Below are positions 35,229 through 54,697 of a stretch of DNA of 54,991 bases, in pieces. A program made the translations under genes and the position numbers. Each line of letters starts with the position of its first letter. Position 1 is the stretch's first letter. The stretch spans positions 1 to 54,991 of the forward strand of contig JBMFPH010000001.1 in NCBI GenBank assembly GCA_049969215.1, written 5' to 3'. Source of the stretch: Anaerolineae bacterium. Lineage in GTDB: Bacteria; Chloroflexota; Anaerolineae; 4572-78; NAK82. The notes under the pieces were generated by a model. That model searched no databases. It was not told the DNA's origin and was given only the letters and a program-made list of their open reading frames with translations.

Positions 35229-35298
35229 CAGATCTGATCATTCGGTGAAACCGTCGTAGCACCACTCTACACTTACACAACGCAGGGAGGACAATTTG

Positions 35299-36213: not shown

Positions 36214-36245
36214 TATCGCACATTCCAATCGGAGGAGTGGATCTC

Positions 36246-38606: not shown

Positions 38607-38627
38607 AGGGTAGGGGAGGCTGTGAGT

Positions 38628-40444: not shown

Positions 40445-40477
40445 GACGAGAGTCTTTTGGGAATGGGCCATTTAGGG

Positions 40478-40506
40478 TTGACACAGACGAGAAGGTGATG
40501 TATAGT
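40478..40506 (+). promoter_or_regulatory. promoter upstream of the TIM-barrel/ABC-transporter operon
   Basis: TTGACA (40478-40483), a 17-nt spacer, then TATAGT (40501-40506). Confidence 0.6.
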
Positions 40507-40511
40507 GCGAC

Positions 40512-40537
40512 TGGTCATATGGTATGCCAGCATACCT
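40512..40537 (+). promoter_or_regulatory. operator: TGGTCA box plus palindrome GGTATGC-CA-GCATACC (site 1 of 2)
   Basis: TGGTCA lies at 40512-40517. TGGTATGCCAGCATACCT (40520-40537) is identical to 49434-49451. The palindrome starts 14 nt after the -10 in both sites. Confidence 0.6.
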
Positions 40538-40566
40538 CAATTTTCCACGCATAGGAGAAGCTCGCA

Positions 40567-41382
40567 ATGAAGCCGGGCGTGGTCGTGAACGGACCCGACG
40601 TTGTCTATGGACCGTTGGCCCTCCTCAGTGGCACGTTTGAGGAGAAGGTAGCTAAAGCAGCTCGAATGGGCTACCGTGGCATCGAATTCATGGTGCGTGA
40701 TCCCTCAGGGCTGGATTGGGCATGGATAAAGACCACCATCCAGAATGCCGGGTTGGAAGTTCCTCAGGTCGTCACTGGCGAGCTCTTCGGCGCAGATGGT
40801 CTGTGCTTGGTAACCGCGGACGACGAGCTATATCGTCGAGCGGAAGAACGCACGCGCTCGGTGATCGATCTGGCCGCCTATCTGGGCGCTATGGTTAACA
40901 TCGGACGACTGCGCGGCCAGCTCAATCTGCTGGGTGACGTAGCAGATCCCTACAGCATTGCAGTAGAACGCCTCCGTAAAGTGGCACTCTATGCCGCGGA
41001 ACGCGGCGTTAAGATCACTTTGGAGCCACTCAATCGTTACGAGAGTGACTTCATCCCCAATGCACTCGAAGGCCGTCGCTTTATTGAGGCAATAGGCTGT
41101 GACAATGTTGGCCTGATGCTTGATCTGTTTCATATGAACATCGAAGATGCCTCGATTGAGGAAGGGCTGCGCCAAGCGGGGGAATTGTTGTGGCATCTTC
41201 ACATTGCCGACACAAACCGACGCTATCCAGGCAGCGGACATATGAACTACGACAGCATCTTCGCTACCCTGCGAGAGATGGACTACCAAGGGTATGTCTC
41301 AGCTGAAATGCTACCGCTGCCAGATCCGGACACGGCTGCACAAAAGACGATAGAGTTTTTGCGCCGTTACATCTCGATGTGA
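40567..41382 (+). CDS. xylose-isomerase-like TIM-barrel sugar (phosphate) isomerase/epimerase (paralog of 27077-27943)
   Basis: ...LMLDLFHMNIED..., HIADTNRRYPGSGHMNY, and ...LPLPDPDTAAQKTIEFLRRYI are shared with the paralog. The RBS is AGGAG. Confidence 0.85.
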   Translation: MKPGVVVNGPDVVYGPLALLSGTFEEKVAKAARMGYRGIEFMVRDPSGLDWAWIKTTIQNAGLEVPQVVTGELFGADGLCLVTADDELYRRAEERTRSVIDLAAYLGAMVNIGRLRGQLNLLGDVADPYSIAVERLRKVALYAAERGVKITLEPLNRYESDFIPNALEGRRFIEAIGCDNVGLMLDLFHMNIEDASIEEGLRQAGELLWHLHIADTNRRYPGSGHMNYDSIFATLREMDYQGYVSAEMLPLPDPDTAAQKTIEFLRRYISM

Positions 41383-41639: not shown

Positions 41640-43124
41640 ATGAGTACTAGGATGTTCAGGGTTTTCAGCGCCTTATTAGCAGTCGCCATGTTGCTTGGTC
41701 TGGTGGTTCCGGTTGCGCACGCGCAAGGGCCTTGCCAGGGGAGCTCGTCCCAATGTGCTGTGGAAGCGGCTAAGCAGTTTGCCGGAACCACCATTAATTA
41801 TGTGCGTGAGGCCGGCTTGCAGGCACAGGATCCACTGACAATGGCTCCGATTTGGGAAGAGCTGACCGGCATCAAGGTTAACGTGATCGAGCTCGCCTAC
41901 TTGGACATGTACACCAAGCCTTTGCAGGATCACCTGACCGGTGGTGGAGCTTATGACGCGATTGACCTGTCCCCAATGTGGATGCAAGATTACGTCAATG
42001 CGGGCGCCTTAGAGCCATTGGATCCCTACATCGAGAAATACATGAACCCAGCCGATATGGAGGACTTCCTGCCGGTCTACCGCTCCGAAGGGGTCATGAA
42101 GATCAACGGCGTCACCTATGGCCTGTTTGACGATGGCGATGTGTTCATCCTCTACTATCGCAAGGATTTGTTTGAGGATGAGACCAACAAGGCCGAGTTT
42201 AAAGCAAAGTATGGCTATGAGTTGACGCCGCCTGAGACGGAGCAGCAGATGTACGACGCCGCTGAGTTTTTCACCAACAAGTATGCCCCCGAGCTGTACG
42301 GGCTGGCAATGCAGCGGATAGAGGGCCAGGCCTATTCCTGGTTTGTCGGCCCCTTTAGCGGCCGTGGTGGCCAATTCTTCGATGAGAACATGAAGGCAAC
42401 CATCAACAGTGAGATCGGCATCCAGCTGCTCACGGATATGGTGAAGCAAAACAAGGTTATGCCGCCTGGCGTCGAGAAGTGGGGCTTTATGGAGGTTCTG
42501 AGCGCCTGGATGGATGGCAAAGTGGCCATGATCGTTACATGGCCGCCGATCGGTCGCTGGTCCGCCGGCTACGGTGACACGGCTAAGCAGCTGGCTTGGG
42601 TGCCGGCCAGTAAGGTGATCGGTAAGGTGGGCTATATGCCGCAGCCGGGTGGTCGTCCTACATTGGCCGGTGGTTTCAATATGTGCGTTTCCGCAAGCAG
42701 CAACAATAAGGAAGCTGCCTATCTATTCATCCAGTGGATGACCAGTCCAGATATCAGTCTGCAGCGCGTGATGTTGCCCTTCGCTTTACGCGACCCCTAT
42801 CGTATGTCTCACTTCAACTCGCCGTTGTATCGTTCCGCTTGGCCTGAGGCAGGCGAATATCTGGACACACTCAAGAAGGCTGCTATGGCCGGGCAATATG
42901 AGCTGGGTATTCCGGGTGCGCGCGAGTATATGGAGGCTATCGACAACGCGCTCACGGCTGCTTACGCGGGCAAGGATCCGAAAGAAGCTTTGGATGAGGC
43001 AGCTGCTAAGTGGGATGCCATCACCGAACGGCTCGGCGTTGAGAATCAGAAGAAAGCCTATGAGCAGTGGCTGAAGAATCCTTGGAACCGTCTCGGTCCC
43101 AAAGTGGAAGTTCCCGCTGAATAG
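41640..43124 (+). CDS. ABC transporter extracellular solute-binding protein (family 1, carbohydrate type)
   Basis: Signal peptide ending VAHA/Q. The length and W/Y-rich profile are typical of CUT1 sugar-binding proteins. The RBS is AGAGGAGG. Confidence 0.85.
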   Translation: MSTRMFRVFSALLAVAMLLGLVVPVAHAQGPCQGSSSQCAVEAAKQFAGTTINYVREAGLQAQDPLTMAPIWEELTGIKVNVIELAYLDMYTKPLQDHLTGGGAYDAIDLSPMWMQDYVNAGALEPLDPYIEKYMNPADMEDFLPVYRSEGVMKINGVTYGLFDDGDVFILYYRKDLFEDETNKAEFKAKYGYELTPPETEQQMYDAAEFFTNKYAPELYGLAMQRIEGQAYSWFVGPFSGRGGQFFDENMKATINSEIGIQLLTDMVKQNKVMPPGVEKWGFMEVLSAWMDGKVAMIVTWPPIGRWSAGYGDTAKQLAWVPASKVIGKVGYMPQPGGRPTLAGGFNMCVSASSNNKEAAYLFIQWMTSPDISLQRVMLPFALRDPYRMSHFNSPLYRSAWPEAGEYLDTLKKAAMAGQYELGIPGAREYMEAIDNALTAAYAGKDPKEALDEAAAKWDAITERLGVENQKKAYEQWLKNPWNRLGPKVEVPAE

Positions 43125-43136
43125 GGGTGATCGTAT

Positions 43137-43168
43137 TGGGGCGCCCCATGAACGGACTGGGGCGCCCC
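43137..43168. repeat. two copies of TGGGGCGCCCC (each containing the 10-nt palindrome GGGGCGCCCC) between the binding-protein and permease genes
   Basis: Copies lie at 43137-43147 and 43158-43168, separated by 10 nt. Confidence 0.7.
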
Positions 43169-43208
43169 CTCTCATAGGTCAGATTTACTCAAAGGAGATT
43201 GGAGCACG

Positions 43209-44129
43209 ATGGTGACCACGACAGAGGCTTTATCGCTGAAATCAGAAATGCCTCGTCGTAAACGACGTGATCTCATCCCATGGATGTTCGTAGCACCGTG
43301 CATAATGGTCATCCTGCTGGTGACAGTATTCCCTACCGTCTATTCCCTTGGTCTTAGCTTGACCAAGTGGGAAATTGGCTTGCAGGAGCGGCCTTTTATC
43401 GGGCTAGGCAATTACATTGAGCTGTTCAGCACGGCCCGATTCTGGCGTTCCTTGCTCACCACGTTGCTAGTCGTGGTCGTTGGGGTAAGCATCGAGTTTC
43501 TTTTGGGCTTCGGCTTGGCCCAAACGTTATCGGGCCAGATGAAAGGCAAACGAATCATTGTCGCAGCGCTGCTCCTGCCAGTAATGGTGATGCCGGTGGT
43601 GGTCGGCTACACGTGGCGTCTGTTGTGGGATGCCCAATATGGGCCGATCAATCAAATCATCGGTTGGATCATTGGGCAGCCATTTACTTATACTTGGCTG
43701 GCCAAGACTGAAACAGCACTGTTGGCCATCCTGGTGACAGAGATCTGGCAGTGGACGCCTTTTATGTTTCTGGTCTTTCTGTCTGGCTTGGCCGTGTTGG
43801 ATCCAGAGATATTCGAAGCAGCAGACATTGATGGTGCTTCCGGATGGGCCAAGCTATGGTATATGACACTGCCGTTGATGCGTCCCATTATTGTGGTGGC
43901 ATTGCTCATCCGTGGTCTGGATGCCCTGAAGTTCTTCGACATTATCTTCACCCTAACAGGGGGTGGGCCGGGCAATTCCACCGAAACCCTTTCATTTTAC
44001 ATCTATCAGATGGGCTACCAATTCTTCCGATTGGGCTATGGGGCAGCGGCTGCATTTGTACTGCTTGTATTCTTGGCGGTATTCCTGACTTATTTGCTTA
44101 AAGCTTTCAAATCCGCCGTGGGAAGTTGA
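43209..44129 (+). CDS. ABC transporter permease (MalF-like, CUT1)
   Basis: Six hydrophobic segments and an EAA-type loop EAADIDGASGWAKLWYMTLPLMRP. Confidence 0.9.
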   Translation: MVTTTEALSLKSEMPRRKRRDLIPWMFVAPCIMVILLVTVFPTVYSLGLSLTKWEIGLQERPFIGLGNYIELFSTARFWRSLLTTLLVVVVGVSIEFLLGFGLAQTLSGQMKGKRIIVAALLLPVMVMPVVVGYTWRLLWDAQYGPINQIIGWIIGQPFTYTWLAKTETALLAILVTEIWQWTPFMFLVFLSGLAVLDPEIFEAADIDGASGWAKLWYMTLPLMRPIIVVALLIRGLDALKFFDIIFTLTGGGPGNSTETLSFYIYQMGYQFFRLGYGAAAAFVLLVFLAVFLTYLLKAFKSAVGS

Positions 44130-44208
44130 TGCATTGTGCAGTCGCTCTTGATCGGTGTCCAAGGTTTGAGAAGATGAAACCCTTAGTGCCTGTTTTAAGA
44201 GGAGAGCT

Positions 44209-45036
44209 ATGAGCTTACGCACGCGTAAGTTGTTTGTCAGTTCCTCGCGATATTTGGTTGCGGCAGTCGCTTTGATATTCTTCCTGTTCCCGATCGTTTG
44301 GATCATATTAACCGCTTTTAAGACGCCAAATGAGTTCTTGAAGAGTCCACCGGTTTGGATCCCTCAAACACCCAGTCTGGTATATTTTGAGCATGTGATT
44401 GGAACTGGCGGGCTCAAGGCACTGATCAACACCCTGATCATCTCCACCGCGACCACACTTTTGGCGCTGCTGATAGGTTCGTTAGCAGCCTATGCCCTGG
44501 CACGTTATCGAGTCGGGGGAGACAACCTTCCATTTTTCATCCTCTCACAGCGCTTCATGCCTCCAGTGGCCGTAATCTTTCCGTTTCTGCTGTTCTTCAA
44601 AACGCTCAGGTGGATGGATACCCACCAGGCATTGATTCTCATCTATCTGACCTTTAATCTGCCTTATGCGGTGTGGATGATGCGCGGTTTCTTTTTGGAA
44701 ATACCGCGTGAAATTGAGGAGTCAGCCTTGGTGGATGGTTGTTCACCATTGGGCGCCTTCTGGCGCATCGCGTTGCCATTGGTCTCCCCAGGGTTGGTTG
44801 CCACGGGGGTCTTTTGCTTCATCTTTTCTTGGGCCGAGTTCTTCTTCGCGGTTGCCATTACCAAGTCTCAAGCGGTTACGTTGTCGGTTTACATTGTGAA
44901 TTTCTTTGGCAAGATGATGGTGCAATGGGGTGAAATTGGCGCCACCTCTATTGTGTCTATGGTGCCTCTGTTTATCCTGAGCTTCATGGTGCAGCGTTAT
45001 TTGGTGCGCGGCCTGACGCTAGGCGCGGTCAAGTAG
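44209..45036 (+). CDS. ABC transporter permease (MalG-like, CUT1)
   Basis: EAA-type loop ESALVDGCSPLGAFWRIALPLVSP and six hydrophobic segments. Confidence 0.9.
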   Translation: MSLRTRKLFVSSSRYLVAAVALIFFLFPIVWIILTAFKTPNEFLKSPPVWIPQTPSLVYFEHVIGTGGLKALINTLIISTATTLLALLIGSLAAYALARYRVGGDNLPFFILSQRFMPPVAVIFPFLLFFKTLRWMDTHQALILIYLTFNLPYAVWMMRGFFLEIPREIEESALVDGCSPLGAFWRIALPLVSPGLVATGVFCFIFSWAEFFFAVAITKSQAVTLSVYIVNFFGKMMVQWGEIGATSIVSMVPLFILSFMVQRYLVRGLTLGAVK

Positions 45037-45055: not shown

Positions 45056-45694
45056 ATGCCTCGCATTGTTGACCTGAGTCTGACCTTGCGCCCTGGTATG
45101 CAAGGGGTGGAGTATGAAGACCAATCCACTTTTGCCTCCAAGGGATGGTATACACGGTTACTTCATCTCCACTCTCACGCTGGTACGCATCTGGACGCAC
45201 CAGGCCACTTTCTCGAAGACGGCTTGACCCTGGAAAAGATAGCTTTGGAGAAGTGCATTGGCCCAGCGTGGGTGATCGACCTGAGCTTCCTTCAACCGCG
45301 CGAGATCATCACTGTGGAACACCTTGCCCCGTATTCTGAACGGGTGACCTGTGGGGCGCGTTTGTTGTTGAAAACTGGTTGGAGTACCCACACTGATATG
45401 TCAGACTACCGCACACACTTCCCGCGCGTGAGCTTGTCCCTGGCACAGTGGTTTGCGCAGCGTGGCATCGCCTTACTGGGTGTTGAGACACCCGCTGTCG
45501 CTTCGATGGATGATCGAGAAGAGCTTATCTCCGTGCACCAAGCTCTGCTGCGTGCTGAGATCGTTATCGTAGAAGGGCTGGCCAATCTGGATGCCCTCTC
45601 AACAGACCAAGTGACATTTATCGCTCTGCCGCTTAAACTGAAGGACGGTGACGGCTCGCCAGTGCGTGCAGTGGCAATTGAAGGGAGCTTATGA
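45056..45694 (+). CDS. putative-cyclase family metal hydrolase (kynurenine formamidase/isatin hydrolase-like)
   Basis: HAGTHLDAPGHF signature (HxGTHxDxPxH). 212 aa. Confidence 0.8.
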   Translation: MPRIVDLSLTLRPGMQGVEYEDQSTFASKGWYTRLLHLHSHAGTHLDAPGHFLEDGLTLEKIALEKCIGPAWVIDLSFLQPREIITVEHLAPYSERVTCGARLLLKTGWSTHTDMSDYRTHFPRVSLSLAQWFAQRGIALLGVETPAVASMDDREELISVHQALLRAEIVIVEGLANLDALSTDQVTFIALPLKLKDGDGSPVRAVAIEGSL

Positions 45695-45806
45695 GGCAGC
45701 GAAGGGGTATCTACATCATCAGTTTGGGCTATCTTTTTAGTCAAGGTGCTGGATTGTTTATGATACTTCGAAGACAAAGAAAACTTTGCTGTGGAGGTCT
45801 TAAGCG

Positions 45807-46682
45807 ATGATCTTCTGCACAGGACTTAGTGTACCCGAAGGACCGGTGCTCTTGCCGGATGGCAGCTTCTTGGTGGTCGAGATGGGGGCAGACCGTGGAT
45901 GTGTGACCCACATCAGTCCCGACGGTAAAGAAAAACGGACCATTGCCAGGACCGGACGCCCTAACGGACTGGCCTTAGATCGGCACGGCAATATCTGGGT
46001 GGCTGAGTCGGGAGACCTGCCCGCGTTATTGCGTGTCACGATGGATGGCCAGGTTGAGATATTCGTGACCGAGTGCGATGGTGAACCGTTCCTCTTTCCC
46101 AACGATCTCGCCATTGGCCCAGACGGTGAGATTTACATGACCGATTCGGGCATCTTGGCCAAAGACTTTGCGCCAGGTGGAAAAGTACGACCTGACTGGG
46201 CCACTTGCCCGATGGATGGACGGGTCTATAGGATTAACCCTAAGACTCGCCAGGTGGTTAAGATTGACTCGGGGATGAAATTCCCCAATGGGATCGCCTT
46301 TGGGCCAGATGGGAATCTCTATGTCAATGAGATGATCCCAGCAATCGTATGGCGCTACGAGTGGAAAGATGGCCGCATTATCAGCGGACGCCAGTATTTT
46401 GGCAATGTGGCTGACCCCGATAGTCCAGCTCCAATGAAATTCCCGGATGGACAGAAATTCGGCGCGAATGGACACCTGTATGTGACTGTCTTCGGCCAGG
46501 GAGATGTCACGGTTCTTGGACCGGACGGTCAGGTCACGCAACGGATCAAGACGGAGGGCAAAATGCCCACCAACTGTGTGTTTGGGCCTCCAGGCAGCCA
46601 CAAGCTCTATGTAACCGAAGACGAATTCGGCACCATTGAGGTATTTGACGTCGGGACAGACGGTCTGCCGCTCTACACGTAG
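45807..46682 (+). CDS. SMP-30/gluconolactonase/LRE-family beta-propeller (probable lactonase)
   Basis: Repeated blades: PNGLALDRHGNIWVAE, PNDLAIGPDGEIYMTD, PNGIAFGPDGNLYVNE and PDGQKFGANGHLYV. Confidence 0.85.
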   Translation: MIFCTGLSVPEGPVLLPDGSFLVVEMGADRGCVTHISPDGKEKRTIARTGRPNGLALDRHGNIWVAESGDLPALLRVTMDGQVEIFVTECDGEPFLFPNDLAIGPDGEIYMTDSGILAKDFAPGGKVRPDWATCPMDGRVYRINPKTRQVVKIDSGMKFPNGIAFGPDGNLYVNEMIPAIVWRYEWKDGRIISGRQYFGNVADPDSPAPMKFPDGQKFGANGHLYVTVFGQGDVTVLGPDGQVTQRIKTEGKMPTNCVFGPPGSHKLYVTEDEFGTIEVFDVGTDGLPLYT

Positions 46683-46745
46683 GGTGCTCACATAGAGGTG
46701 GCTCAGGTATCAACCAAGCCCGAAGCTCCCTAGGTAGGTCGAATT

Positions 46746-48119
46746 TTGCTGAAGGAGATGATCACATTGCATTCCCACAGTCCTGTCTTTACTCGCCTGC
46801 TTGACCGCATTATGCGGATGCCGGTCGTTGATTGCCATGAGCACCTGCGAGGTCCGGAGCGCGATCTAAAGGATAGGCCGCGCGAACCGATCGCCGCTTT
46901 GACAACTATGTACTTGATCAGCGATCTGTGGTCGGCTGGAGCGACCGACCGTGAGATTGGAATCTTAGAGAACCCTGCTGTTAGCACAGACGAAAAATGG
47001 CCTTTGTTCGCGCGTCTCTGGGAGGCCTGTCGCCACACAGCTTACGCACGTGTAACGTGCCTGATGCTGAAACACTGCTATGGTGTCGAAGAGATAACGA
47101 GGGCTGCTTTGGAGCACGTGGCGGAGCGCCTGGCCGAGCAGGATGAGGCATATTATCTAAGGCTTTTTGAGGAAGCCGGCATCAAAGCGGTCGTCGCCGA
47201 TGCGCTCTTTCCACCTCCGTGGGAACGTCCAGTTCGTTACTTCGGCAGCCCAGTGCTGCAACAGTTTCTGCAAGATAAGTTCCAATTGCCCCGCAGCTGG
47301 CGCCCTGTATTCTCGTTACCCTACTATCATGAGATTCGCTTGCGCGAATTCGTCGACTTTGTTGGCTCGTTGGCAGAGCAGAACGTCACCTCACTAGAGG
47401 AATACGAAGAGGCCCTATACACGCTCATCAGACGCGCTGTCCAGAAGGGTGTCATTGCTTTCAAGGACCAATCCGCTTACCGGCGTATCATTTCCTATGA
47501 TCTACCAACCCGAGACGAGGCAGAGCGCTTGTTTAACCGCTTGCTGACAGATCCGCGCCAGCAGCTGGCTTGGCCGGAGGCAAAGCCACTGGATGACTAT
47601 CTGTTTCACCAAATGATGCGCTGGGCGCGCGAATTGCACTTGCCGGTCCAGATTCATACTGGCCATCTGGCAAACTCGCGCAATCGGGTGGACAAGGCAA
47701 ACGCAAAGCACTTTACTTCGGTGTTGGAGCTCCACAGGGAAGTGCGCTTTGACCTCTTCCATGGTAACTGGCCTTATATGGCGGATGTGTTGTTTCTGGC
47801 CAAGAACTATCCCAATGCGCATTTGGACATGTGTTGGGTGCATATGGTAGACCCTCTATACAGTCGAGAGTTGCTTAAACGGGCCGTCATGACTGTGCCA
47901 CACACGAAGATTTTCGGTTTCGGTGGCGATTATTTTTTGTCGCCCGAGCATTCCATTGCGCATCTGATGCTCGCGCGGGAAGTCATAGCAGCCGCGCTGG
48001 CGGACTTGATAGAGATCGGATGGCTGGAGGAAGAGAAGGCAATCCAGATCGCAGCGGGATGGCTCTACAACAACCCCAATCGCTTCTATCAGTTGGGACT
48101 GCCCGACTTTGTGCCATGA
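46746..48119 (+). CDS. amidohydrolase-fold protein (amidohydrolase_2/uronate-isomerase-like), substrate unknown
   Basis: N-terminal metal motif VVDCHEHL, later IHTGH and a conserved Asp region. The start codon is uncertain (46746, 46758 or later). Confidence 0.65.
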   Translation: MLKEMITLHSHSPVFTRLLDRIMRMPVVDCHEHLRGPERDLKDRPREPIAALTTMYLISDLWSAGATDREIGILENPAVSTDEKWPLFARLWEACRHTAYARVTCLMLKHCYGVEEITRAALEHVAERLAEQDEAYYLRLFEEAGIKAVVADALFPPPWERPVRYFGSPVLQQFLQDKFQLPRSWRPVFSLPYYHEIRLREFVDFVGSLAEQNVTSLEEYEEALYTLIRRAVQKGVIAFKDQSAYRRIISYDLPTRDEAERLFNRLLTDPRQQLAWPEAKPLDDYLFHQMMRWARELHLPVQIHTGHLANSRNRVDKANAKHFTSVLELHREVRFDLFHGNWPYMADVLFLAKNYPNAHLDMCWVHMVDPLYSRELLKRAVMTVPHTKIFGFGGDYFLSPEHSIAHLMLAREVIAAALADLIEIGWLEEEKAIQIAAGWLYNNPNRFYQLGLPDFVP

Positions 48120-48143
48120 GTTGGGAGATGCACTGAAACCTTG

Positions 48144-49298
48144 ATGAATACACCCCACCACGCGGAGAACGTGATCAGCGTTCAGGAGTATCAAGCTCGC
48201 CTTGAGATGATACGTCAGGCAATGGCGCATAGGGGCCTGGACGCCCTCCTGGTATACTCTTGGAAGCGCGGCCAGGTACGTTACCTCTCGGGTTACAAAC
48301 CCAACTATGTGGCCAATGTCGCAATGGTTGTGGTCCTCCCCGACCGTGATCCCACCTTGCTCATACGTTTTCCCTTTGATCTAGGGCGGGCGCGCAAAGT
48401 GTCCTGGCTGCAGGATGTCCGTGCCAGTGGCGATCTGGAAGGTCTGGTGAGCGACTGCCAAGCCATCCTTGACAGCGCAATTGTACGTGGCAGCTTCATC
48501 GGGTTGGTGGGTGGCGATTCGGTGGTGGATGAGCTGCCGCACAGTATGTATGAAATGCTGAGTCGGGCACTGCCTGACTATAGATTGGTGCCTGCATCCT
48601 ACATCCTCGAGAAAGCCCGCATGTGCAAAAGCGTCGCCGAAGCTGAATTAGTGCGTGAATCGGCGCGCGTAGCTGATGCCACACTAGCGACTGCCCGCAG
48701 TGTAGCACAGGCAGGCCGTTCGGAGTATGAGCTTATTGCGGCAGCGGAGGCAACTGCGCGTGCCCTGGGCGCGGAGGAAATCCTCTCTGTTATCGCTTCA
48801 GCGGCGTGGGAACTGATCAGACCACCCGAAGGACGCCTGCTGGGAGAGAATGAAATGCTCGTGGCAGAATTCGCTGTCCAGGTGGGAGGATACTTTACTC
48901 AGGTGCCGGGTGTTTTTCACACTGGTACGCCGAGCGCGGAACAGCGAGAGATGTATTCGGTAGCCTATGCTGGTTATCTGGCCGGCGTGCAGGCCGCTTG
49001 CCCAGGTCATACTGTCGGCGATGTTGCCAGAGCGGAGCTGGCCATTCTTGAGGACAGTGGCTGGCTCGAATGGCATGCCTATGACCTGGGGCACGGCGAC
49101 GGATTAGATCACCCTGAGATCCCTGCCATTACACCCGAATCGAATGTGCCGATTGAGCCTGGAATGGTGCTTTGCATTCATCCTGGGCTGCGTAAACCGG
49201 GTGTCGGAGGTGTCTTTGTGGGTGGTACAGTTCTGATCGGAGAAGACGGGGCCATCCCGTTGCATCAGGTTGCTCCTGAGATGTGGGACTGGAAGTAA
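48144..49298 (+). CDS. M24-family pita-bread-fold protein with creatinase/prolidase-type N-terminal domain
   Basis: GHGDGLDHPE, IEPGM and IGEDG motifs in M24 order. The usual D...D metal pair appears by eye to read E...Q (AEFAVQVGGYFTQV). Confidence 0.75.
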   Translation: MNTPHHAENVISVQEYQARLEMIRQAMAHRGLDALLVYSWKRGQVRYLSGYKPNYVANVAMVVVLPDRDPTLLIRFPFDLGRARKVSWLQDVRASGDLEGLVSDCQAILDSAIVRGSFIGLVGGDSVVDELPHSMYEMLSRALPDYRLVPASYILEKARMCKSVAEAELVRESARVADATLATARSVAQAGRSEYELIAAAEATARALGAEEILSVIASAAWELIRPPEGRLLGENEMLVAEFAVQVGGYFTQVPGVFHTGTPSAEQREMYSVAYAGYLAGVQAACPGHTVGDVARAELAILEDSGWLEWHAYDLGHGDGLDHPEIPAITPESNVPIEPGMVLCIHPGLRKPGVGGVFVGGTVLIGEDGAIPLHQVAPEMWDWK

Positions 49299-49390: not shown

Positions 49391-49420
49391 TTGACCCAGC
49401 TCCGGACAAAGCGTTAGAGT
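49391..49420 (+). promoter_or_regulatory. promoter upstream of the 2-hydroxyacid dehydrogenase/DUF1537 operon
   Basis: TTGACC (49391-49396), an 18-nt spacer, then TAGAGT (49415-49420). Confidence 0.5.
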
Positions 49421-49425
49421 TTGCA

Positions 49426-49451
49426 TGGTCAGGTGGTATGCCAGCATACCT
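49426..49451 (+). promoter_or_regulatory. operator: TGGTCA box plus palindrome GGTATGC-CA-GCATACC (site 2 of 2)
   Basis: TGGTCA lies at 49426-49431. TGGTATGCCAGCATACCT (49434-49451) is identical to 40520-40537, with the same spacing from the -10. Confidence 0.6.
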
Positions 49452-49493: not shown

Positions 49494-50570
49494 ATGAAAG
49501 ACATTCTATTTCGTATTGGGGTTTCCGCTGATTTCAACAACGAAGCTCCTGGTCTGCTTGAACCTTTCCTGGAGCAAGTATTCGGGCCGTTTCCCTTTGT
49601 GGAACGTTGTTTCTTCCCGGTCAAGAGCAAAGTGGTAGCAGCAGCTGACATCATGGATTTCGATGCGGTGATAACATTGAAAGCACGATACACCGCTGCA
49701 TCGCTGAGCGGGAATAACCGCCTTGCGATCATCGCGCGTTGGGGGGCCGGTTATGACGTGGTCGATGTGCCAGCGTGCACTGCGGCTGATGTCTTGCTTG
49801 CCATCACACCTGAGGCGGTGCGCCAGCCAGTCGCCGAGGGCATCTTGGCTTTCTTCCTGGCACTCGCCAAGAATCTGTCGGCCAGAGATCGGATCACGCG
49901 CAGTGGGCTGCGCGACCTGACAATAGAAAACACTGGTGTCTGTTTGTCGGAAAAAGTTTTCGGCTCGGTAGGGTTGGGCAACATCGCGTCTCGGATGTTC
50001 CGCCTGATCCAGGCGTTTGGCCCGGCGCGCATGCTTGCCTGCGATCCCTACGTAAAACCTGCGCACGCGGAGCAGCTGGGCGTGGAGCTGGTCGATCTGC
50101 GTACCCTGTTCCGCGAGTCTGATTTCCTGGCTGTCACCTGTCCCCTCAATGATGAAACAAGAGGTATGATCGATCGCAAATTGCTGTCCTTGATGAAGCC
50201 GACCGCCTTCTTTGTGAATGTAGCGCGTGGTGGCATTGTCAAAGAAGAGGATCTGGTGGCCGTCCTGCGAGAGGGGCGCATTGCTGGTGCCGGGTTGGAC
50301 GTCTTTGAGCAAGAACCTTTGCCCCCTAATCACCCTCTTGCCTCTTTGCAAAACGTCATGCTGACCCCACATCGTATCGCATGGTCGGATGCACTCTATC
50401 GCGGAAACGGCCTGGGGGCCTGTCATAATGTCCTGACGGTGTTGCAGGGCAGAGTGCCCGAGCACACGGTCAATCGTGAGGTTATCCATCAACCTGGCTT
50501 TCAGGCTAAACTACAGTTGCTTGGCCAGCGTTGGGCATCTGCCGTGGAAAGAACGGTTAACATGCGGTAA
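49494..50570 (+). CDS. D-isomer-specific 2-hydroxyacid dehydrogenase family protein
   Basis: VGLGNIASRM Rossmann motif, NVARGGIV, GAGLDVFEQEP, and TPHRIAWSD (catalytic His). ATG 49494 is preferred because the longer ORF (49425) would run through the operator. Confidence 0.82.
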   Translation: MKDILFRIGVSADFNNEAPGLLEPFLEQVFGPFPFVERCFFPVKSKVVAAADIMDFDAVITLKARYTAASLSGNNRLAIIARWGAGYDVVDVPACTAADVLLAITPEAVRQPVAEGILAFFLALAKNLSARDRITRSGLRDLTIENTGVCLSEKVFGSVGLGNIASRMFRLIQAFGPARMLACDPYVKPAHAEQLGVELVDLRTLFRESDFLAVTCPLNDETRGMIDRKLLSLMKPTAFFVNVARGGIVKEEDLVAVLREGRIAGAGLDVFEQEPLPPNHPLASLQNVMLTPHRIAWSDALYRGNGLGACHNVLTVLQGRVPEHTVNREVIHQPGFQAKLQLLGQRWASAVERTVNMR

Positions 50571-50579
50571 GGAGGGATT

Positions 50580-51419
50580 ATGGGTGAGGTGGTGGCTCTG
50601 CTGGGTGCTGCCGGCAAAATGGGCACCCGCATCAGCAGCAATCTTGCAAAGACGACAGCGTATGAAGTGCTATGTGTCGAGGCGACCGGAGCAGGTGAAG
50701 AGCGCTTGCGCGCGCGTGGTTTTGCTCCAATCCCACTCTGGGATGCCGTGCCACACGCTGACATTGTGGTGATGGCGATACCAGATGTTCTGATAAGCAG
50801 CATGACCCGCACGATTGTCCCTCAGATGAGAAGTGGAGCCATGCTCCTATGCCTTGACCCTGCTGCACCTTACAGCGGCGAGATCCTTTTGCGCGACGAT
50901 ATTGCATATTTCGTCACCCATCCTTGTCATCCTTCTATCATTAAAGAAGAGACCGATCCAGTGGCACGCCAGGACTTTTTTGGCGGTGTCGCGGCCCAAC
51001 AGGCAATTGTCTGCGCATTGATGCAGGGATCAGAAGCTGACTATGTGCGCGGGGAGAAGCTGGCGCGTGCCATGTTTGCGCCGGTGCGACGGGCTCATCG
51101 TGTCACTGTGGAACAGATGGCACTGCTCGAACCCGCGATGGCCGAGACAATGGCTCTCACCCTGATGATGGCGTTGCGAGAAGGTCTTGACGAAGTGGTC
51201 AAACGTGGTGTACCGGAAGATGCCGCGCGAGACTTTTTGCTTGGCCATTTGGGTATCTTCGCCGGCATCCTGTTCGGTTTCTACGACGCACAGGTGTCCG
51301 ACGGCGCCAAAAGAGCTGCTGCGCGTGCCAGACAGGTTATCTTGCAGCCCGACTGGAAAAAGATTTTTGACCCAGACAATGTGATGCGTGAGGTCAAAGC
51401 AATCACACAAGGTCAGTGA
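50580..51419 (+). CDS. NAD(P)-binding Rossmann protein with helical C-terminal domain (ProC/6-phosphogluconate-dehydrogenase-C-like), function unknown
   Basis: N-terminal LLGAAGKMG dinucleotide motif and MAIPDV. It has a paralog at 54741. The RBS is AAGGAGG. Confidence 0.6.
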   Translation: MGEVVALLGAAGKMGTRISSNLAKTTAYEVLCVEATGAGEERLRARGFAPIPLWDAVPHADIVVMAIPDVLISSMTRTIVPQMRSGAMLLCLDPAAPYSGEILLRDDIAYFVTHPCHPSIIKEETDPVARQDFFGGVAAQQAIVCALMQGSEADYVRGEKLARAMFAPVRRAHRVTVEQMALLEPAMAETMALTLMMALREGLDEVVKRGVPEDAARDFLLGHLGIFAGILFGFYDAQVSDGAKRAAARARQVILQPDWKKIFDPDNVMREVKAITQGQ

Positions 51420-51435
51420 GGGGGTGCGTTCATTC

Positions 51436-52221
51436 GTGAAACCTAATCGCTTTAGGCAAATCATAGCTCAGGGCAAGGTTCCAGTAGGACATATGTTGAT
51501 CGAGTTTGCATCCCCTGGGATGGCTCGAATCCTTGATTGTGTCGGTGTCGACTTTGTGGTCGTGGATATGGAACATTCAGGTTTCGGTTTCCGAGAGGTG
51601 GCTACCCTGCTGGCGTTGTTCAAGGGCACTTCTATTACCACCTTTGTGCGCGCGCCTCAGATCGAGTATCACTTCATCGCGCGTTGCCTGGATGCTGGAG
51701 CCCAAGGCATCATGGCGCCCAATGTCAGAAATGGTGTCGAGGCACGGGCTATCATCAACGCGGCCAAGTATGCCCCCTTGGGTGAGCGCGGTGTGGCACT
51801 TGGCACGGCTAACACGGACTACCGGTCTGTCAACGCCGTTGAGTTCCTCACGGAAGCCAACCAAGAGACGGTTGTCATATGCCAAATCGAGAGCCAGGAA
51901 GGCCTTGACCATCTCGAAGAGATTGCCGCCACCCCTGGAGTGGACATTCTTTGGGTAGGGCACTTTGATCTGAGTCACTCCTTGGGAATTGCTGGGCAGC
52001 TGGATCATCCAAGATTGCTCGAGGCACTACGGCAGGTAGTGGCCGTGGCTAGGCGCCATAAACTGGCTGCCGCTATTCAGCCACGTACATTAGTACAGGC
52101 ACGAAGGTGGTTGGAACTGGGTTTCAATGTGATTTCATTCGGTGCCGATGTGGCCATTTACACCGACGCTTTGGCCGATGGGGTCGCCCGGGTGCGTGAG
52201 CTGGTGGAGCAGAGAGATTAA
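51436..52221 (+). CDS. HpcH/HpaI-family class II (metal-dependent) 2-keto-3-deoxy-acid aldolase
   Basis: N-terminal ...NRFRQIIAQGKVPVGHM..., VVVDMEHSGFG, and the QIES...GV motif. GTG 51436 is chosen to match the family N-terminus, but the start is uncertain. Confidence 0.8.
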   Translation: MKPNRFRQIIAQGKVPVGHMLIEFASPGMARILDCVGVDFVVVDMEHSGFGFREVATLLALFKGTSITTFVRAPQIEYHFIARCLDAGAQGIMAPNVRNGVEARAIINAAKYAPLGERGVALGTANTDYRSVNAVEFLTEANQETVVICQIESQEGLDHLEEIAATPGVDILWVGHFDLSHSLGIAGQLDHPRLLEALRQVVAVARRHKLAAAIQPRTLVQARRWLELGFNVISFGADVAIYTDALADGVARVRELVEQRD

Positions 52222-52245
52222 GAGGCAGCTGCGAGTGGAGCATCT

Positions 52246-53652
52246 ATGAACCTAAAGGAGATGTTTGAAAGCTTGCCTCCAGAGTGGCCAGCCGACCTGT
52301 TGGCTGACATTCGCGAATTAGTCCACGAGAGTCGGCGCAAGATAGTGGTGCTGGATGACGATCCCACTGGCACCCAGACAGTGCATGATGTCCCGGTGCT
52401 CACAGGGTGGTCAGTAGAGGCACTATGTGCTGAGCTCGAGAGTGATTTGCCGGCTTTCTATATTCTTACCAACTCACGCAGTCTGTCCCTCGCGGAGGCG
52501 GTGGCTTTGAATACCACAGTCGGACGTAACTTATTGGAAGCAAGGTATCGCTCAGGACGTGAGTTCGTGGTGGTAAGTCGGAGCGACTCTACTTTGCGCG
52601 GACATTTTCCGGGAGAGGTCAAGGCATTGGCGCAAGCGTTGCAGCAGCAATTCGACGCTTGGTTGATCATCCCCTTCTTTCTGGAGGGAGGGCGTTATAC
52701 CGTTCACGATGTCCATTACGTTGCCGAGGGGGAGCAACTCGTGCCAGCAGGTGAAACCGAGTTTGCCCGTGACGTGGTTTTTGGGTACCACGCCTCCAAC
52801 CTGCGCGAATGGGTAGAGGAAAAGACGAGAGGTGACGTCCGCGCGAGCGATGTAGCTTCTATCAGTATAGATGATTTGCGCCTCGGGGGGCCTGATAGGG
52901 TCACTGAGCAGCTGACAGCCCTCCGGAATGGCAACATCTGCATTGTGAACGCTGCCAGTATGCGCGACTTGCAAGTGTTCGTCCTCGGTCTGTTGCGCGC
53001 TGAAGCTCTGGGAAAGCGATTTTTGTATCGCACAGCAGCTTCTTTTGTTCAAGTGCGCGCCGGATTGGCACCGCATCCCCTGCTTCAACGTTCAGATTTC
53101 GATCTGTCCTTTGGAAGTGGCGGGTTGATCGTGGTCGGTTCCTATGTACCACGCACCACCGCTCAGATTCGAACCCTTATTAGCAGGTCTGATATCTGCA
53201 GCCTGGAGGTTGCGGTTGAGGCGTTGCTCGATGATGAGCATTGGCAGCAAGAGACAAAGCGTCTGGCACGACAGGCAGATCAGCTGTTGCGTTCCGGCTG
53301 CAATGTCATGTTGTACACCAGCCGCCAGCTGGTCACCGGTGCGAACGCTGAACACAGCCTGAACATCGGAAGGCGAGTGTCAGAGGGATTGGTATCCATT
53401 GTACGTGCCATTTCCGCGCGACCGCGCTACCTAGTGGCGAAAGGCGGTATAACTTCAAGTGATGTGGCCACATACGGTCTAGATGTTAAGCGTGCAATGG
53501 TGATGGGCCAGATTTTGCCGGGCGTACCGGTGTGGCGGCTTGGCCCAGAAAGTCGTTTCCCTGGCTTGGCGTACGTCGTCTTTCCGGGCAACGTGGGTGA
53601 CGCTCAATCTCTGCTCCGGGTAGTTCAAATGCTTAGCTATGACGAAGAGTAA
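52246..53652 (+). CDS. DUF1537 four-carbon (acid-sugar) kinase family protein
   Basis: Hallmark N-terminal IVVLDDDPTGTQTVHDVPVLT. Two-domain length (468 aa). C-terminal ...KGGITSSD... nucleotide-binding region. Confidence 0.85.
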   Translation: MNLKEMFESLPPEWPADLLADIRELVHESRRKIVVLDDDPTGTQTVHDVPVLTGWSVEALCAELESDLPAFYILTNSRSLSLAEAVALNTTVGRNLLEARYRSGREFVVVSRSDSTLRGHFPGEVKALAQALQQQFDAWLIIPFFLEGGRYTVHDVHYVAEGEQLVPAGETEFARDVVFGYHASNLREWVEEKTRGDVRASDVASISIDDLRLGGPDRVTEQLTALRNGNICIVNAASMRDLQVFVLGLLRAEALGKRFLYRTAASFVQVRAGLAPHPLLQRSDFDLSFGSGGLIVVGSYVPRTTAQIRTLISRSDICSLEVAVEALLDDEHWQQETKRLARQADQLLRSGCNVMLYTSRQLVTGANAEHSLNIGRRVSEGLVSIVRAISARPRYLVAKGGITSSDVATYGLDVKRAMVMGQILPGVPVWRLGPESRFPGLAYVVFPGNVGDAQSLLRVVQMLSYDEE

Positions 53653-53695: not shown

Positions 53696-53774
53696 TCAGG
53701 CTGTTGAGTGCGGACAATGGCAAAACCCAGAACCTATCCCCAAACTGAAATGCACACGGCTCATAAGCGCCATT

Positions 53775-53857: not shown

Positions 53858-54697
53858 ATGATAGAGCGGGAAGTATCGAACCCGATCCAATTATTCAAGG
53901 CGATTCAACGCTCAGCCACTCTGGTTCACCGCGTCACCGGGCAGATCGAGCAACTGATCATCAAAGGGGAGCTGCACCCCGGTGACCGCTTGCCCCCGGA
54001 GCGCGAGTTGGCACGCCAGTTCGGCGTAAGTCGGACTGTGGTGCGCGAAGCAGTGCGTTCTCTGGTTGCCAAGGGGCTGCTGGAAGTACGACCTGGCAGT
54101 GGCACTTTGGTGCGCAGCCCCAGTGCAGATGCGGTCGCACAGTCACTGATAATGTTCTTGCGAGCTGGACGTCCCGAATTCGACTGTGAGAAAGTGATGG
54201 AGATTCGCCGTGTCCTCGAGGTAGCGAACGCCGGCTTTGCAGCACAGCGTCGCACCTCTGAAGATTTGGCAGAGATGGCACATATTCTACGCGATGCAAG
54301 CACGCTCTCCTATGATCGCTATCGTTTTGCCGAGCTGGATGTCGCTTTCCATGCTGCTGTAGCACGCGCCACCCACAACGAGCTTTTGTCTTTGTTGTTG
54401 GACTCTGTGGCGGACATCCTTCTGACCTGGCGCCAGTTTAGTTTTGACGTGCCAGGTACACCCGAACGTGCCGTTATGTACCATCGTGCTATTTATGAGC
54501 AGATCAGACGCGGGGATATTGAGAGCGCTCGCCATGCAATGGGGGAACATCTAATTGAAGCCGAGGACACAATGCGCAAGGCGATTGCATTGCATACAGC
54601 CCATGCTAGGCAGCAAAGTGGTTATGAATCGTTGTGCAATGAGAGTGCAATAGGGGACAACGGGGGGACAGTCGCCGACGAGGCGACAATCTCTTAG
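53858..54697 (+). CDS. GntR-family transcriptional regulator, FadR subfamily (FCD domain), copy 2
   Basis: ...PERELARQFGVSRTVVREAVRSLVAKGLL... HTH and an FCD-like helical domain. It is a paralog of 31405-32157. Confidence 0.88.
   Translation: MIEREVSNPIQLFKAIQRSATLVHRVTGQIEQLIIKGELHPGDRLPPERELARQFGVSRTVVREAVRSLVAKGLLEVRPGSGTLVRSPSADAVAQSLIMFLRAGRPEFDCEKVMEIRRVLEVANAGFAAQRRTSEDLAEMAHILRDASTLSYDRYRFAELDVAFHAAVARATHNELLSLLLDSVADILLTWRQFSFDVPGTPERAVMYHRAIYEQIRRGDIESARHAMGEHLIEAEDTMRKAIALHTAHARQQSGYESLCNESAIGDNGGTVADEATIS

Follow-up and report, generated by a model that had tools for sequence, protein, structure and literature searches.

Gene content and organization of the locus

The window, by which we mean the whole stretch of 54,991 nucleotides analysed here (contig JBMFPH010000001.1, positions 1 to 54,991), comes from an uncultured Chloroflexota bacterium, whose genome is a metagenome-assembled genome (MAG) of 368 contigs, 97% complete. 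Towards its end lies a run of four genes, all on the forward strand, for which Pfam searches confirmed the content proposed in a first-pass annotation: a D-2-hydroxyacid dehydrogenase (2HADH), a Rossmann protein, an HpcH/HpaI aldolase, and a DUF1537 kinase (Table 1). The successive genes are spaced by 9 nt, an overlap, and 24 nt, which places the HpcH gene directly upstream of the kinase gene. The overlap is probably only apparent, since a GTG codon at 51436, behind a GAGGGGG box, would be the likelier start of the HpcH gene, and position 49494 seems a likelier start for the dehydrogenase than the opening of its reading frame. A single promoter-like site precedes the four genes, the next one being found before the gene of a GntR/FadR-type regulator. 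It is followed by a palindromic operator that is common to a second site, located ahead of the transporter/lactonase operon upstream.

Table 1. Features of the locus, in window coordinates
Feature	Position	Strand	Basis
Second AP_endonuc_2 gene of the window	35296-36213		
First copy of the shared operator	40478-40537		
IolO/Hyi-like AP_endonuc_2 TIM barrel, first gene behind the first operator copy	40567-41382	+	
Sugar-type ABC importer (binding protein and two permeases)	41640-45036	+	Pfam
Four hydrolase-fold genes: cyclase/formamidase-like, SMP-30 lactonase-like, amidohydrolase_2/UxaC-like, M24/creatinase-like	45056-49298	+	Pfam, NCBIfam
Promoter-like site TTGACC-18-TAGAGT (49391-49420), then palindromic operator	49391-49451	+	
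D-2-hydroxyacid dehydrogenase (2-Hacid_dh_C/2-Hacid_dh)	49494-50570 (reading frame opens at 49425)	+	Pfam, E 2e-52
Candidate ApnO-like NAD-dependent oxidoisomerase (PGDH_C and KARI_N-like Rossmann domain)	50580-51419	+	Pfam, E 1e-58
HpcH/HpaI class II 2-oxoacid aldolase	51388-52221	+	Pfam HpcH_HpaI, 118 bits, E 5e-34
DUF1537 acid-sugar kinase, LTD/2-OtnK clade	52246-53652	+	Pfam SBD_N E 4e-57, NBD_C E 1e-39
GntR/FadR-type (FCD) regulator, own promoter-like site at 53774	53858-54697	+	
Second ApnO-like paralog, N-terminal 83 residues, cut by the contig end	54741-54989	+	

The TIM-barrel protein behind the first operator copy scores 256 bits as IolO-like, 101 bits as Hyi, and 80 bits as OtnI. 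Together with the second AP_endonuc_2 gene, it qualifies the statement of the first-pass annotation that the window holds no canonical partner of DUF1537 kinases: this is correct for PdxA, Aldolase_II, and RuBisCO-like proteins, but not for Hyi-like TIM barrels. The context of the kinase is non-canonical nonetheless, as had been proposed, with PdxA2, OtnC, and RuBisCO-like genes absent from its neighbourhood. The suggestion that the upstream lactonase-like genes supply an acid sugar also remains plausible, and the family of the upstream cyclase recurs near this type of kinase in 16 of the 81 loci of the kinase clade.

The DUF1537 kinase belongs to the LTD/2-OtnK clade

The hallmark motif of the family can be read directly in the kinase (VVLDDDPTGTQT, at about 52345-52380), and the protein has the two-domain DUF1537 architecture, with both SBD_N (194 bits) and NBD_C (137 bits) above the Pfam cut-off. 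As a single sequence it gave no PDB match, and the profile of its clade matched the solved DUF1537 structures 4xfm/4xgj (residues 27-466, E 1e-16). It lies outside the assigned NCBIfam equivalogs, as expected from the first reading, scoring 68 bits against a cut-off of 450 for DtnK, 49 against 350 for 3-OtnK, and 29 against 700 for OiaK.

The closest named relatives are instead found in plants. The kinase domains of plant LTD proteins are 51-55% identical to this kinase over 97-99% of its length, that of Arabidopsis LTD (AT1G18270) being 53% identical. In these proteins, two beta-hydroxyacid dehydrogenase (beta-HADH) domains are followed by the DUF1537 and the F_bP_aldolase domains, an order that we confirmed in the Arabidopsis protein. 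According to PMC12540250, LTD corresponds to the three-step pathway LtnD/2-OtnK/2-OtnC, and the characterised 2-OtnK from Arthrobacter sp. ZBG10 acts on 2-oxo-tetronate (Guo et al. 2024, cited therein).

In the phylogenetic tree, the group of the window, the plant LTD domains, and the kinases of loci L012 and L015 fall into one clade of 47 rows with a support of 99, and the aldolases adjoining the L012 and L015 kinases share 54% and 52% identity with the LTD aldolase domain, respectively. The Arthrobacter enzyme would fall in this tree where actinobacterial loci sharing its gene set (L075) lie. Kinases found in three-step contexts cannot be told apart by any alignment column from those found in contexts like that of the window, and of the 468 positions, 72 show at least 95% conservation. 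Judged by its sequence, then, the kinase is of the plant and bacterial three-step L-threonate-pathway type (LTD/2-OtnK) and no orphan, its clade having a functional assignment. The list of characterised DUF1537 routes in the first-pass annotation omits this three-step pathway. In the naturally occurring fusion P0121, a kinase of this type (57% identical) is joined to an ApnL-like lactonase (48% identical).

A candidate ApnO-like oxidoisomerase

The product of the second gene (279 aa), previously labelled as an uncharacterised Rossmann protein, looks like an oxidoisomerase of the ApnO type from the apiose pathway, judging from its fold neighbours and functional residues. It has the expected size of about 275 residues and the expected combination of a Rossmann domain and a KARI-like C-terminal domain. 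Its Foldseek neighbours after 5t57 and 3c24 are all KARI and BurG, and KARI and BurG are also given as structural neighbours of ApnO (PMC13753588). The Rossmann motif A-x-G-K-M-G is retained. The functional residues of AaApnO, including those for metal, coenzyme, and substrate (E32, P67-D68, D92, H113, H116, F133, E183, E188, F218, H222, and S239; PMC13753588), matched here through the published numbering and not through an alignment to the ApnO sequence, have counterparts in D93, H114, H117, F134, E184, E189, F219, H223, and S240, mostly shifted by one position, with the E corresponding to E32 at position 34 and the P-D pair retained with its D at position 69. They are invariant in seven homologs, save for F134, which is W or Y in three of them, and C242 of AaApnO is replaced by Ala. 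The NCBIfam search of this protein gave no ApnO match.

ApnO turns D-apionate, D-erythronate, and D-ribonate into 3-oxo acids, and 3-oxo-D-erythronate partly decarboxylates unaided (PMC13753588). Within Chloroflexota, ApnO-like proteins are rare, since they were found in only two of the 401 sampled genomes, and the other carrier has no kinase; they therefore do not accompany the kinase as a rule.

Extension of the cluster beyond the contig end

The cluster resumes on another contig of the same genome (C22), which carries the C-terminus of an ApnL-like protein (74% identical to that of L009), an SDR (92%), and an MBL protein (97%). In the related loci L009, L006, and L007, the downstream order is GntR, ApnO-like paralog, AP_endonuc_2, ApnL-like, extended SDR, and MBL, the TIM-barrel gene beyond the contig end being known from these relatives only. 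Two further loci, L060 (Bacteroidota) and L068, also have the pair of ApnO-like and AP_endonuc_2 genes in the vicinity of the kinase. The L009 ortholog of the ApnL-like protein scores 357 bits against the NF049900 cut-off of 750, and it is hence a homolog, not an equivalog. Just past the window there are partner-like genes, namely the second ApnO-like gene, the TIM barrel, and the ApnL-like lactonase, which speaks against a lack of partners nearby.

Conservation of this arrangement bears on the possibility that the cluster is a lineage-specific mosaic, in which the neighbours were brought together by recent rearrangement and the kinase cooperates solely with genes lying downstream of it, the three upstream genes being unrelated or decaying. 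Such a mosaic would agree with the variable gene content of five close relatives, with the gene fragments in L007 and L008, with the rarity of the ApnO-like family in the phylum, and with the high diversity of kinase neighbourhoods across the 81 loci. We regard it as unlikely, because the order 2HADH, ApnO-like, HpcH, and kinase is retained in L009 at 79-86% identity and the operator is common to the upstream transporter/lactonase operon. Moreover, L068 unites ApnO-like, TIM-barrel, cyclase, 2HADH, MBL, and kinase genes on one strand.

The HpcH aldolase and its dehydrogenase

The best named relatives of the HpcH protein are GarL, HpaI, and YfaU, with all scores far below the equivalog cut-offs, and its PDB matches include 3qz6 (E 2e-43) and GarL (1dxe, E 3e-33). 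The best relatives of the 2HADH in NCBIfam and the PDB are PGDH and glyoxylate/2-ketoaldonate reductases, also below cut-off.

The first-pass annotation proposed that HpcH splits the kinase product. If so, a C5 or C6 phospho-2- or 3-oxo acid would be cleaved instead of decarboxylated, giving pyruvate or hydroxypyruvate and a phospho-aldehyde, and the 2HADH would then reduce the hydroxypyruvate. The adjacency of both genes suits this route, as do the hydroxypyruvate-using HpcH-family enzymes among the PDB matches (e.g., 6r62) and the class I (DHDPS-type) aldolase that follows the kinase in L041. HpcH homologs also lie within 10 kb of the kinase in 7 of the 81 loci, from several lineages (the window, L009, L012, L019, L050, L085, and, as remnants, L007), so there may be some functional link between HpcH and the kinase. 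However, among the best 10 Chloroflexota HpcH loci, a 2HADH is paired with HpcH in seven and a kinase is nearby in one, and the kinase was not found in three of the five genomes with the best HpcH orthologs (G094, a complete genome, G122, and G051). Conversely, L006 lacks both the 2HADH and HpcH, and L007 and L008 hold only fragments of them, the kinase being intact in all three. With a C4 substrate, the retro-aldol reaction would additionally be chemically blocked, because the 4-hydroxyl would be the phosphorylated one. Altogether, we give this cleavage a low probability.

Search for the terminal steps elsewhere in the genome

PdxA, 2-OtnC, and a clear LtnD ortholog were not found in a search of the whole MAG. 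The only RuBisCO-like protein is MtnW-like, and the best OtnC-like class II aldolase reaches 126 of the 250 bits required; neither is linked to the cluster. These results would speak for cleavage by HpcH. They have also to be weighed against an ordinary three-step L-threonate/D-erythronate pathway, with LtnD and 2-OtnC encoded elsewhere, either in sequence missing from the assembly or as divergent paralogs. Apart from the clade of the kinase and the fragmented state of the MAG, this pathway is favoured by the presence in the genome of a single beta-HADH of the right family and of six F_bP_aldolase-family matches, which represent about five genes, and the 2HADH might take over the role of LtnD in oxidising the 2R-hydroxyl. 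Nevertheless, the F_bP_aldolase paralogs are 31-38% identical to the LTD aldolase domain (114-130 bits), whereas the aldolases linked to the kinase in L012, L015, and L036 are 43-54% identical to it (209-288 bits), those of L075 and L058 reaching about 145 bits. The beta-HADH shows 29-32% identity to LtnD types, against 35-41% within the LtnD group itself. Of the 13 kinase-bearing genomes in a sample of 400 Chloroflexota genomes, 11 had no 2-OtnC-type aldolase, and in the other two the aldolase adjoins the kinase. An ordinary three-step pathway with distant genes is accordingly as improbable as the cleavage by HpcH.

A proposed apionate-type route

With moderate confidence, we favour a variant of the apionate type, in which a lactonase, the ApnO-like enzyme, the LTD/2-OtnK-type kinase, and a loss of CO2 would act in this order, the 2HADH and HpcH forming a separate module. 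The analysis establishes which genes are present, to which families and clades they belong, the fusions, and the synteny, and it did not recover the canonical partners from the assembly; the substrates, the order of the steps, and the decarboxylation are inferred. The four genes would constitute one transcription unit controlled by the GntR/FadR regulator, within a larger regulon for lactone and acid-sugar catabolism. A sugar lactone would first be opened to a 2R aldonate similar to apionate, erythronate, or ribonate; candidate lactonases for this step are the SMP-30, amidohydrolase, and MBL proteins as well as the ApnL-like enzyme past the contig end. The ApnO-like oxidoisomerase or its paralog would convert the aldonate into a 3-oxo acid in one step, and the kinase would phosphorylate the terminal hydroxyl of the resulting oxo acid. 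The phosphorylated beta-keto acid would lose CO2, spontaneously or by the action of a further enzyme, to yield a ketose phosphate (DHAP if the acid is C4) as a possible substrate for isomerisation by the AP_endonuc_2 TIM barrels. The 2HADH and HpcH would form a conserved side or parallel branch of two enzymes acting on non-phosphorylated 2-oxo acids, not a step after the kinase. This branch could first oxidise a 2R-hydroxy acid and then cleave the product in an aldol reaction, or begin with the cleavage and then reduce the resulting aldehyde or oxo acid.

The cluster would represent a candidate variant of known sugar-acid routes and not a new aldolase-based one. The first-pass interpretation is retained as to the position of the kinase outside the equivalogs, its unusual context, and the lactonase supply, and revised as to the role of HpcH, the clade of the kinase, and the lack of partners nearby.

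Comparison with known systems

The four-step tetronate pathway of E. coli ygbJKLM, reportedly described by Zhang et al. in 2016, is said to consist of LtnD, OtnI, 3-OtnK, and OtnC. The proposed route shares its logic of dehydrogenase, isomerase, DUF1537 kinase, and CO2 loss, including an AP_endonuc_2 TIM barrel; BLASTP, however, detects no similarity between the kinase and YgbK (E 0.54), and no linked OtnC was found. The HpcH protein resembles the 2-keto-3-deoxy acid aldolases of GarL/GarR-type and other HpcH-family modules, but its conserved partner here is a D-2-hydroxyacid dehydrogenase and not a beta-hydroxyacid dehydrogenase.

The oxidative D-apionate routes proceed through ApnL, ApnO, and OiaK, and then through the RuBisCO-like OiaT or OiaX, among others (Carter et al. 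2018, summarised in PMC13753588). Like them, this cluster combines a homolog of ApnL, a DUF1537 kinase, and two ApnO-like genes that retain the catalytic residues of ApnO, and the kinase-lactonase fusion joins two of these functions. In contrast, the kinase falls outside OiaK, the ApnL-like protein does not reach its cut-off, and the cluster has no RuBisCO-like protein. The three-step L-threonate/D-erythronate pathway and LTD, as described in PMC12540250, share the DUF1537 clade of this kinase, but the LtnD-type beta-hydroxyacid dehydrogenase and the 2-OtnC-type F_bP_aldolase are missing from the cluster. There is a tension between both comparisons, in that the 2-OtnK-type kinase is reported to act on a 2-oxo acid and ApnO yields 3-oxo acids; this would require a promiscuous kinase, unless the 2HADH provides its 2-oxo substrate.

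Organization of the operon

The window takes up the entire contig C1, which belongs to an Anaerolineae-type genome of 3.4 Mb in 368 contigs, about 97% complete. The four-gene arrangement described in the first-pass annotation was borne out: Pfam matches all four genes on the same strand, the genes are tightly packed, and the kinase motif VVLDDDPTGTQT can be read in the window sequence. Promoter-like sites are limited to two positions, the first of which is followed by a palindrome with an identical copy elsewhere in the window. As called mechanically, the HpcH/HpaI aldolase gene overlaps the PGDH_C gene by 32 nt. A GTG codon at 51436, 12 nt downstream of a GAGGGGG box, suits the HpcH family alignments better, as those begin at residue 17, and a start at this codon would probably remove the overlap.

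Features of the window in and around the kinase operon
Feature	Position (nt)	Strand	Remark
Region with fused transketolase-like, split transketolase, IolM-like and IolO-like genes	34170-41382		upstream of the cluster
Split transketolase	38622-40444		
Palindrome, identical copy	40478-40537		
Putative cyclase/formamidase-like hydrolase	45056-45694		
Promoter-like site	49391		palindrome on its 3' side
D-2-hydroxyacid dehydrogenase (2HADH)	49425 or 49494 to 50570	+	Pfam
PGDH_C protein with KARI_N-like Rossmann domain	50580-51419	+	Pfam
HpcH/HpaI aldolase	51388-52221	+	Pfam; mechanical start
DUF1537 kinase (SBD_N + NBD_C)	52246-53652	+	Pfam
Promoter-like site	53774		
GntR/FCD regulator	53858-54697	+	3' of the kinase
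Second PGDH_C paralog	from 54741	+	start only, cut by the contig end

A kinase of the LTD clade

The kinase is the only DUF1537 gene of the genome, and its NCBIfam scores are far under the cut-offs (68/450 bits for DtnK, 49/350 for OtnK, and 29/700 for OiaK). Its single sequence matched no PDB chain and showed no BLASTP similarity to YgbK from E. coli; the profile of its clade matches 4xfm and 4xgj (E 1e-16). When longer proteins were searched, hundreds of plant LTD proteins came up, including AT1G18270 from Arabidopsis. In these proteins, two beta-hydroxyacid dehydrogenase domains are joined to a DUF1537 domain and to a class II fructose/tagatose-bisphosphate aldolase (F_bP_aldolase) domain, and they share 51-55% identity with the window kinase across 97-99% of the kinase length. 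According to PMC12540250, LTD corresponds, in fused form, to the three-step L-threonate pathway of bacteria, which consists of LtnD, the 2-oxo-tetronate kinase 2-OtnK, and the F_bP_aldolase-type 2-OtnC.

In an 81-sequence tree, the plant domains, the kinases of the related loci L012 and L015, and the five-member group of the window and its close relatives fall into one 47-row clade with a support of 99; the L012 and L015 kinases directly adjoin aldolases that share 54% and 52% identity with the LTD aldolase domain. Given this identity and clade membership, the kinase is not an orphan; the three-step L-threonate route is missing from the DUF1537 routes listed in the first-pass annotation. Kinases of this type form a widespread group of acid-sugar kinases, and land plants employ the type when they break down ascorbate and threonate.

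The actinobacterial members of the clade show the gene order GntR, kinase, LtnD-like dehydrogenase. In L069 and L071, this dehydrogenase (244/350 bits against LtnD) and the kinase form a single fusion protein, and L075 adds the aldolase to the same gene set. No alignment column was found that distinguishes kinases of the window-type context from those of the three-step context, so there is no sign of a change in kinase specificity, and the idea of specificity-switch residues was dropped. The same applies to a role as substitute glycerate kinase, as a MOFRL-type glycerate kinase is encoded in the genome and the window kinase sits in the LTD clade.

Among the commonest neighbours of these kinases, in several phyla, is the putative cyclase/formamidase-like hydrolase also present in the window (16 of 81 loci), which in Thermomicrobia occurs in the fixed order cyclase, extended SDR, SDR, kinase.

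The ApnO-like Rossmann protein

The only sequence relatives of the PGDH_C protein in the PDB are 5t57 and 3c24, both uncharacterised structural-genomics entries. With its predicted model (pLDDT 76), a structure search ranks these two first, followed only by ketol-acid reductoisomerases and BurG. The D-apionate oxidoisomerase ApnO, a two-domain enzyme of about 275 residues, likewise has ketol-acid reductoisomerases and BurG as structural neighbours (PMC13753588). Compared by published residue numbers rather than by sequence alignment, the ApnO residues named in that paper recur in the window protein, each shifted by +1 (Glu32 by +2): the A-G-G-K-M-G Rossmann motif, Glu32, Pro67-Asp68, Asp92, His113, His116, Phe133, Glu183, Glu188, Phe218, His222, and Ser239. 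The differences are limited to Cys242, which is Ala here, and to Ser187, which is not conserved, and across seven homologs the named residues are invariant with the exception of Phe134, which is Trp or Tyr in three of them. By its residues and predicted fold, the protein looks like an ApnO, which gives the Pfam PGDH_C family a likely function; a literature search on PF16896 and PGDH_C returned nothing relevant.

ApnO forms 3-oxo acids from D-apionate, D-erythronate, and D-ribonate, and its action on erythronate bypasses the dehydrogenase-plus-OtnI steps, with a product that decarboxylates in part spontaneously (PMC13753588). A general partnership between the ApnO-like protein and the kinase was also considered and dropped, since the protein was found in no more than 2 of the 401 Chloroflexota genomes sampled.

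Continuation of the cluster and its putative lactonases

The kinases of three close relatives, L006, L007, and L009, are 79-88% identical to that of the window, and are followed in the 3' direction by GntR, a second ApnO-like protein, an AP_endonuc_2 TIM barrel, a protein of 657 residues similar to the D-apionate lactonase ApnL (it scores 357 bits with the ApnL model, whose cut-off is 750), an extended SDR, and an MBL-fold hydrolase. The genome of the window resumes on contig C22 with the C-terminus of an ApnL-like protein (74% identical to that of L009), then the SDR (92%) and the MBL protein (97%). ApnO-like and AP_endonuc_2 genes are also paired near the kinase in L068 (Chloroflexota) and L060 (Bacteroidota), and ApnL-like and MBL genes lie near it in L041 (Abditibacteriota).

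The cluster joins two recently described enzyme sets, the LTD-type kinase and the ApnL/ApnO set known from apiose catabolism. This link is supported by a natural fusion, the metagenomic protein P0121 (1150 aa), in which a kinase of this type (57% identical) is joined to an ApnL-like lactonase (48% identical). The precomputed Pfam labels of P0121, PF25837 and PF25838, were unmatched in the Pfam-A scan.

Upstream of the cluster, the window transketolase genes, to which NCBIfam gives generic names only, lie beside IolM-like Zn-dehydrogenases (251/450 bits) and an IolO-like epimerase (256/300 bits). The split transketolase recalls, by analogy, the transketolase route of D-apiose catabolism mentioned in PMC13753588.

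Canonical partners in the genome and the phylum

A genome search found no PdxA. Three class II aldolase (Aldolase_II) genes lie on contigs other than C1: an L-ribulose-5-phosphate 4-epimerase, a weakly OtnC-like protein (126/250 bits) with unrelated neighbours, and an aldolase/SDR-type protein. The sole RuBisCO-like protein of the genome, on contig C46, is MtnW-like (288/409 bits; OiaX 137/700) and unlinked to the cluster; its gene (loci L005 and L102) is flanked on one side by a xylose-isomerase-like TIM barrel and on the other by a PDH E1-alpha-like gene. Six F_bP_aldolase matches, about five genes, are spread over contigs C105, C78, C53, C3, and C93, the two on C53 being adjacent. None of these paralogs is a 2-OtnC ortholog: against the LTD aldolase domain they score 114-130 bits, compared with 209-288 bits for the aldolases linked to the kinase in L012, L015, and L036. 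No clear LtnD ortholog was found in the genome either.

The kinase type is present in 13 of 400 sampled Chloroflexota genomes. Only two of the 13 have a 2-OtnC-type aldolase, next to the kinase both times, and none is recognisable in the other 11, so the kinase without 2-OtnC is the usual state in this phylum.

Proposed route and the place of the HpcH aldolase

The best-supported reading is that the cluster encodes a variant of the known oxidative acid-sugar routes. Lactonases would supply an aldonate, to be converted by the ApnO-like enzyme into a 3-oxo acid or by 2HADH into a 2-oxo acid. The LTD-type kinase would phosphorylate the resulting oxo acid, CO2 would be lost from the beta-keto acid phosphate, spontaneously or by a further enzyme, and TIM-barrel isomerases would handle the ketose phosphate. 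We infer the substrate, the regio-preference of the kinase (2-oxo or 3-oxo), and the terminal step alike. Together, the enzymes of the cluster make a concrete assay set for another way of catabolizing four-carbon or branched sugar acids.

A candidate for the missing terminal step is an enzyme of the FAA-hydrolase family, since this family has beta-keto acid decarboxylases among its members. Such a gene lies 5' of the kinase, together with a Zn-dehydrogenase and a glyoxalase-fold protein, in L060 (7629-9989) and L041 (7725-9586); L041 also has a DHDPS-type aldolase 3' of the kinase.

The first-pass annotation had instead proposed that the HpcH-type aldolase splits a phosphorylated or keto acid sugar, in place of a decarboxylation. 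The forward neighbourhoods of the 81 kinase loci, with gene calls made mechanically in the related loci, are very diverse: SDR and beta-hydroxyacid dehydrogenases occur in 20 each, GntR in 16, Gfo/Idh/MocA in 14, glyoxalase-fold proteins in 11, HpcH, 2HADH, ApnO-like, and AP_endonuc_2 proteins in seven each, and F_bP_aldolase in five. Among the relatives of the window, only L009 keeps the order 2HADH, ApnO-like, HpcH, kinase. L006 is devoid of 2HADH and HpcH, and L007 (8300-10000) and L008 (1-1163) retain an intact kinase with upstream amidohydrolase, M24, 2HADH, ApnO-like, and HpcH genes present only as short in-frame fragments (66-97% identity), which suggests a recent erosion of the operon, or possibly collapsed assemblies.

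Seen from the aldolase, seven of the ten best HpcH loci in the 400 Chloroflexota genomes have an adjacent 2HADH-HpcH pair, and only one has a kinase within 10 kb, there adjoining an Aldolase_II gene. Three of the five genomes that carry the best HpcH orthologs, among them a complete one, yielded no kinase. The conserved partner of HpcH is therefore 2HADH, and the pair works without this kinase. With relatives also keeping the kinase without an intact HpcH, cleavage of the kinase product by HpcH was not sustained. Considering the seven loci with HpcH and the class I aldolase of L041, we leave a minor chance to a functional link between such aldolases and the kinase. Another reading, which we consider quite improbable, would be an apionate-type oxidative route with ApnL-like, ApnO-like, and LTD-type kinase steps, without RuBisCO-like protein, OtnC, 2-OtnC, or PdxA2, where HpcH and 2HADH perform the C-C cleavage, either with the phosphorylated oxo acid as substrate or by shortening a branched 2-oxo acid so that the kinase receives 2-oxo-tetronate.

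One of the seven pair loci, L109 (G395:C20:51000-70900), from another Chloroflexota family, has the order GntR, 2HADH, HpcH, ApnL-like, binding protein. This binding protein is very similar to that of the window, and the kinase of the genome lies on another contig. In L110 (G176:C177), a kinase of the clade has an Aldolase_II-family gene (E 1e-45) as its immediate neighbour, which is a type of partner unseen in the other 81 loci.
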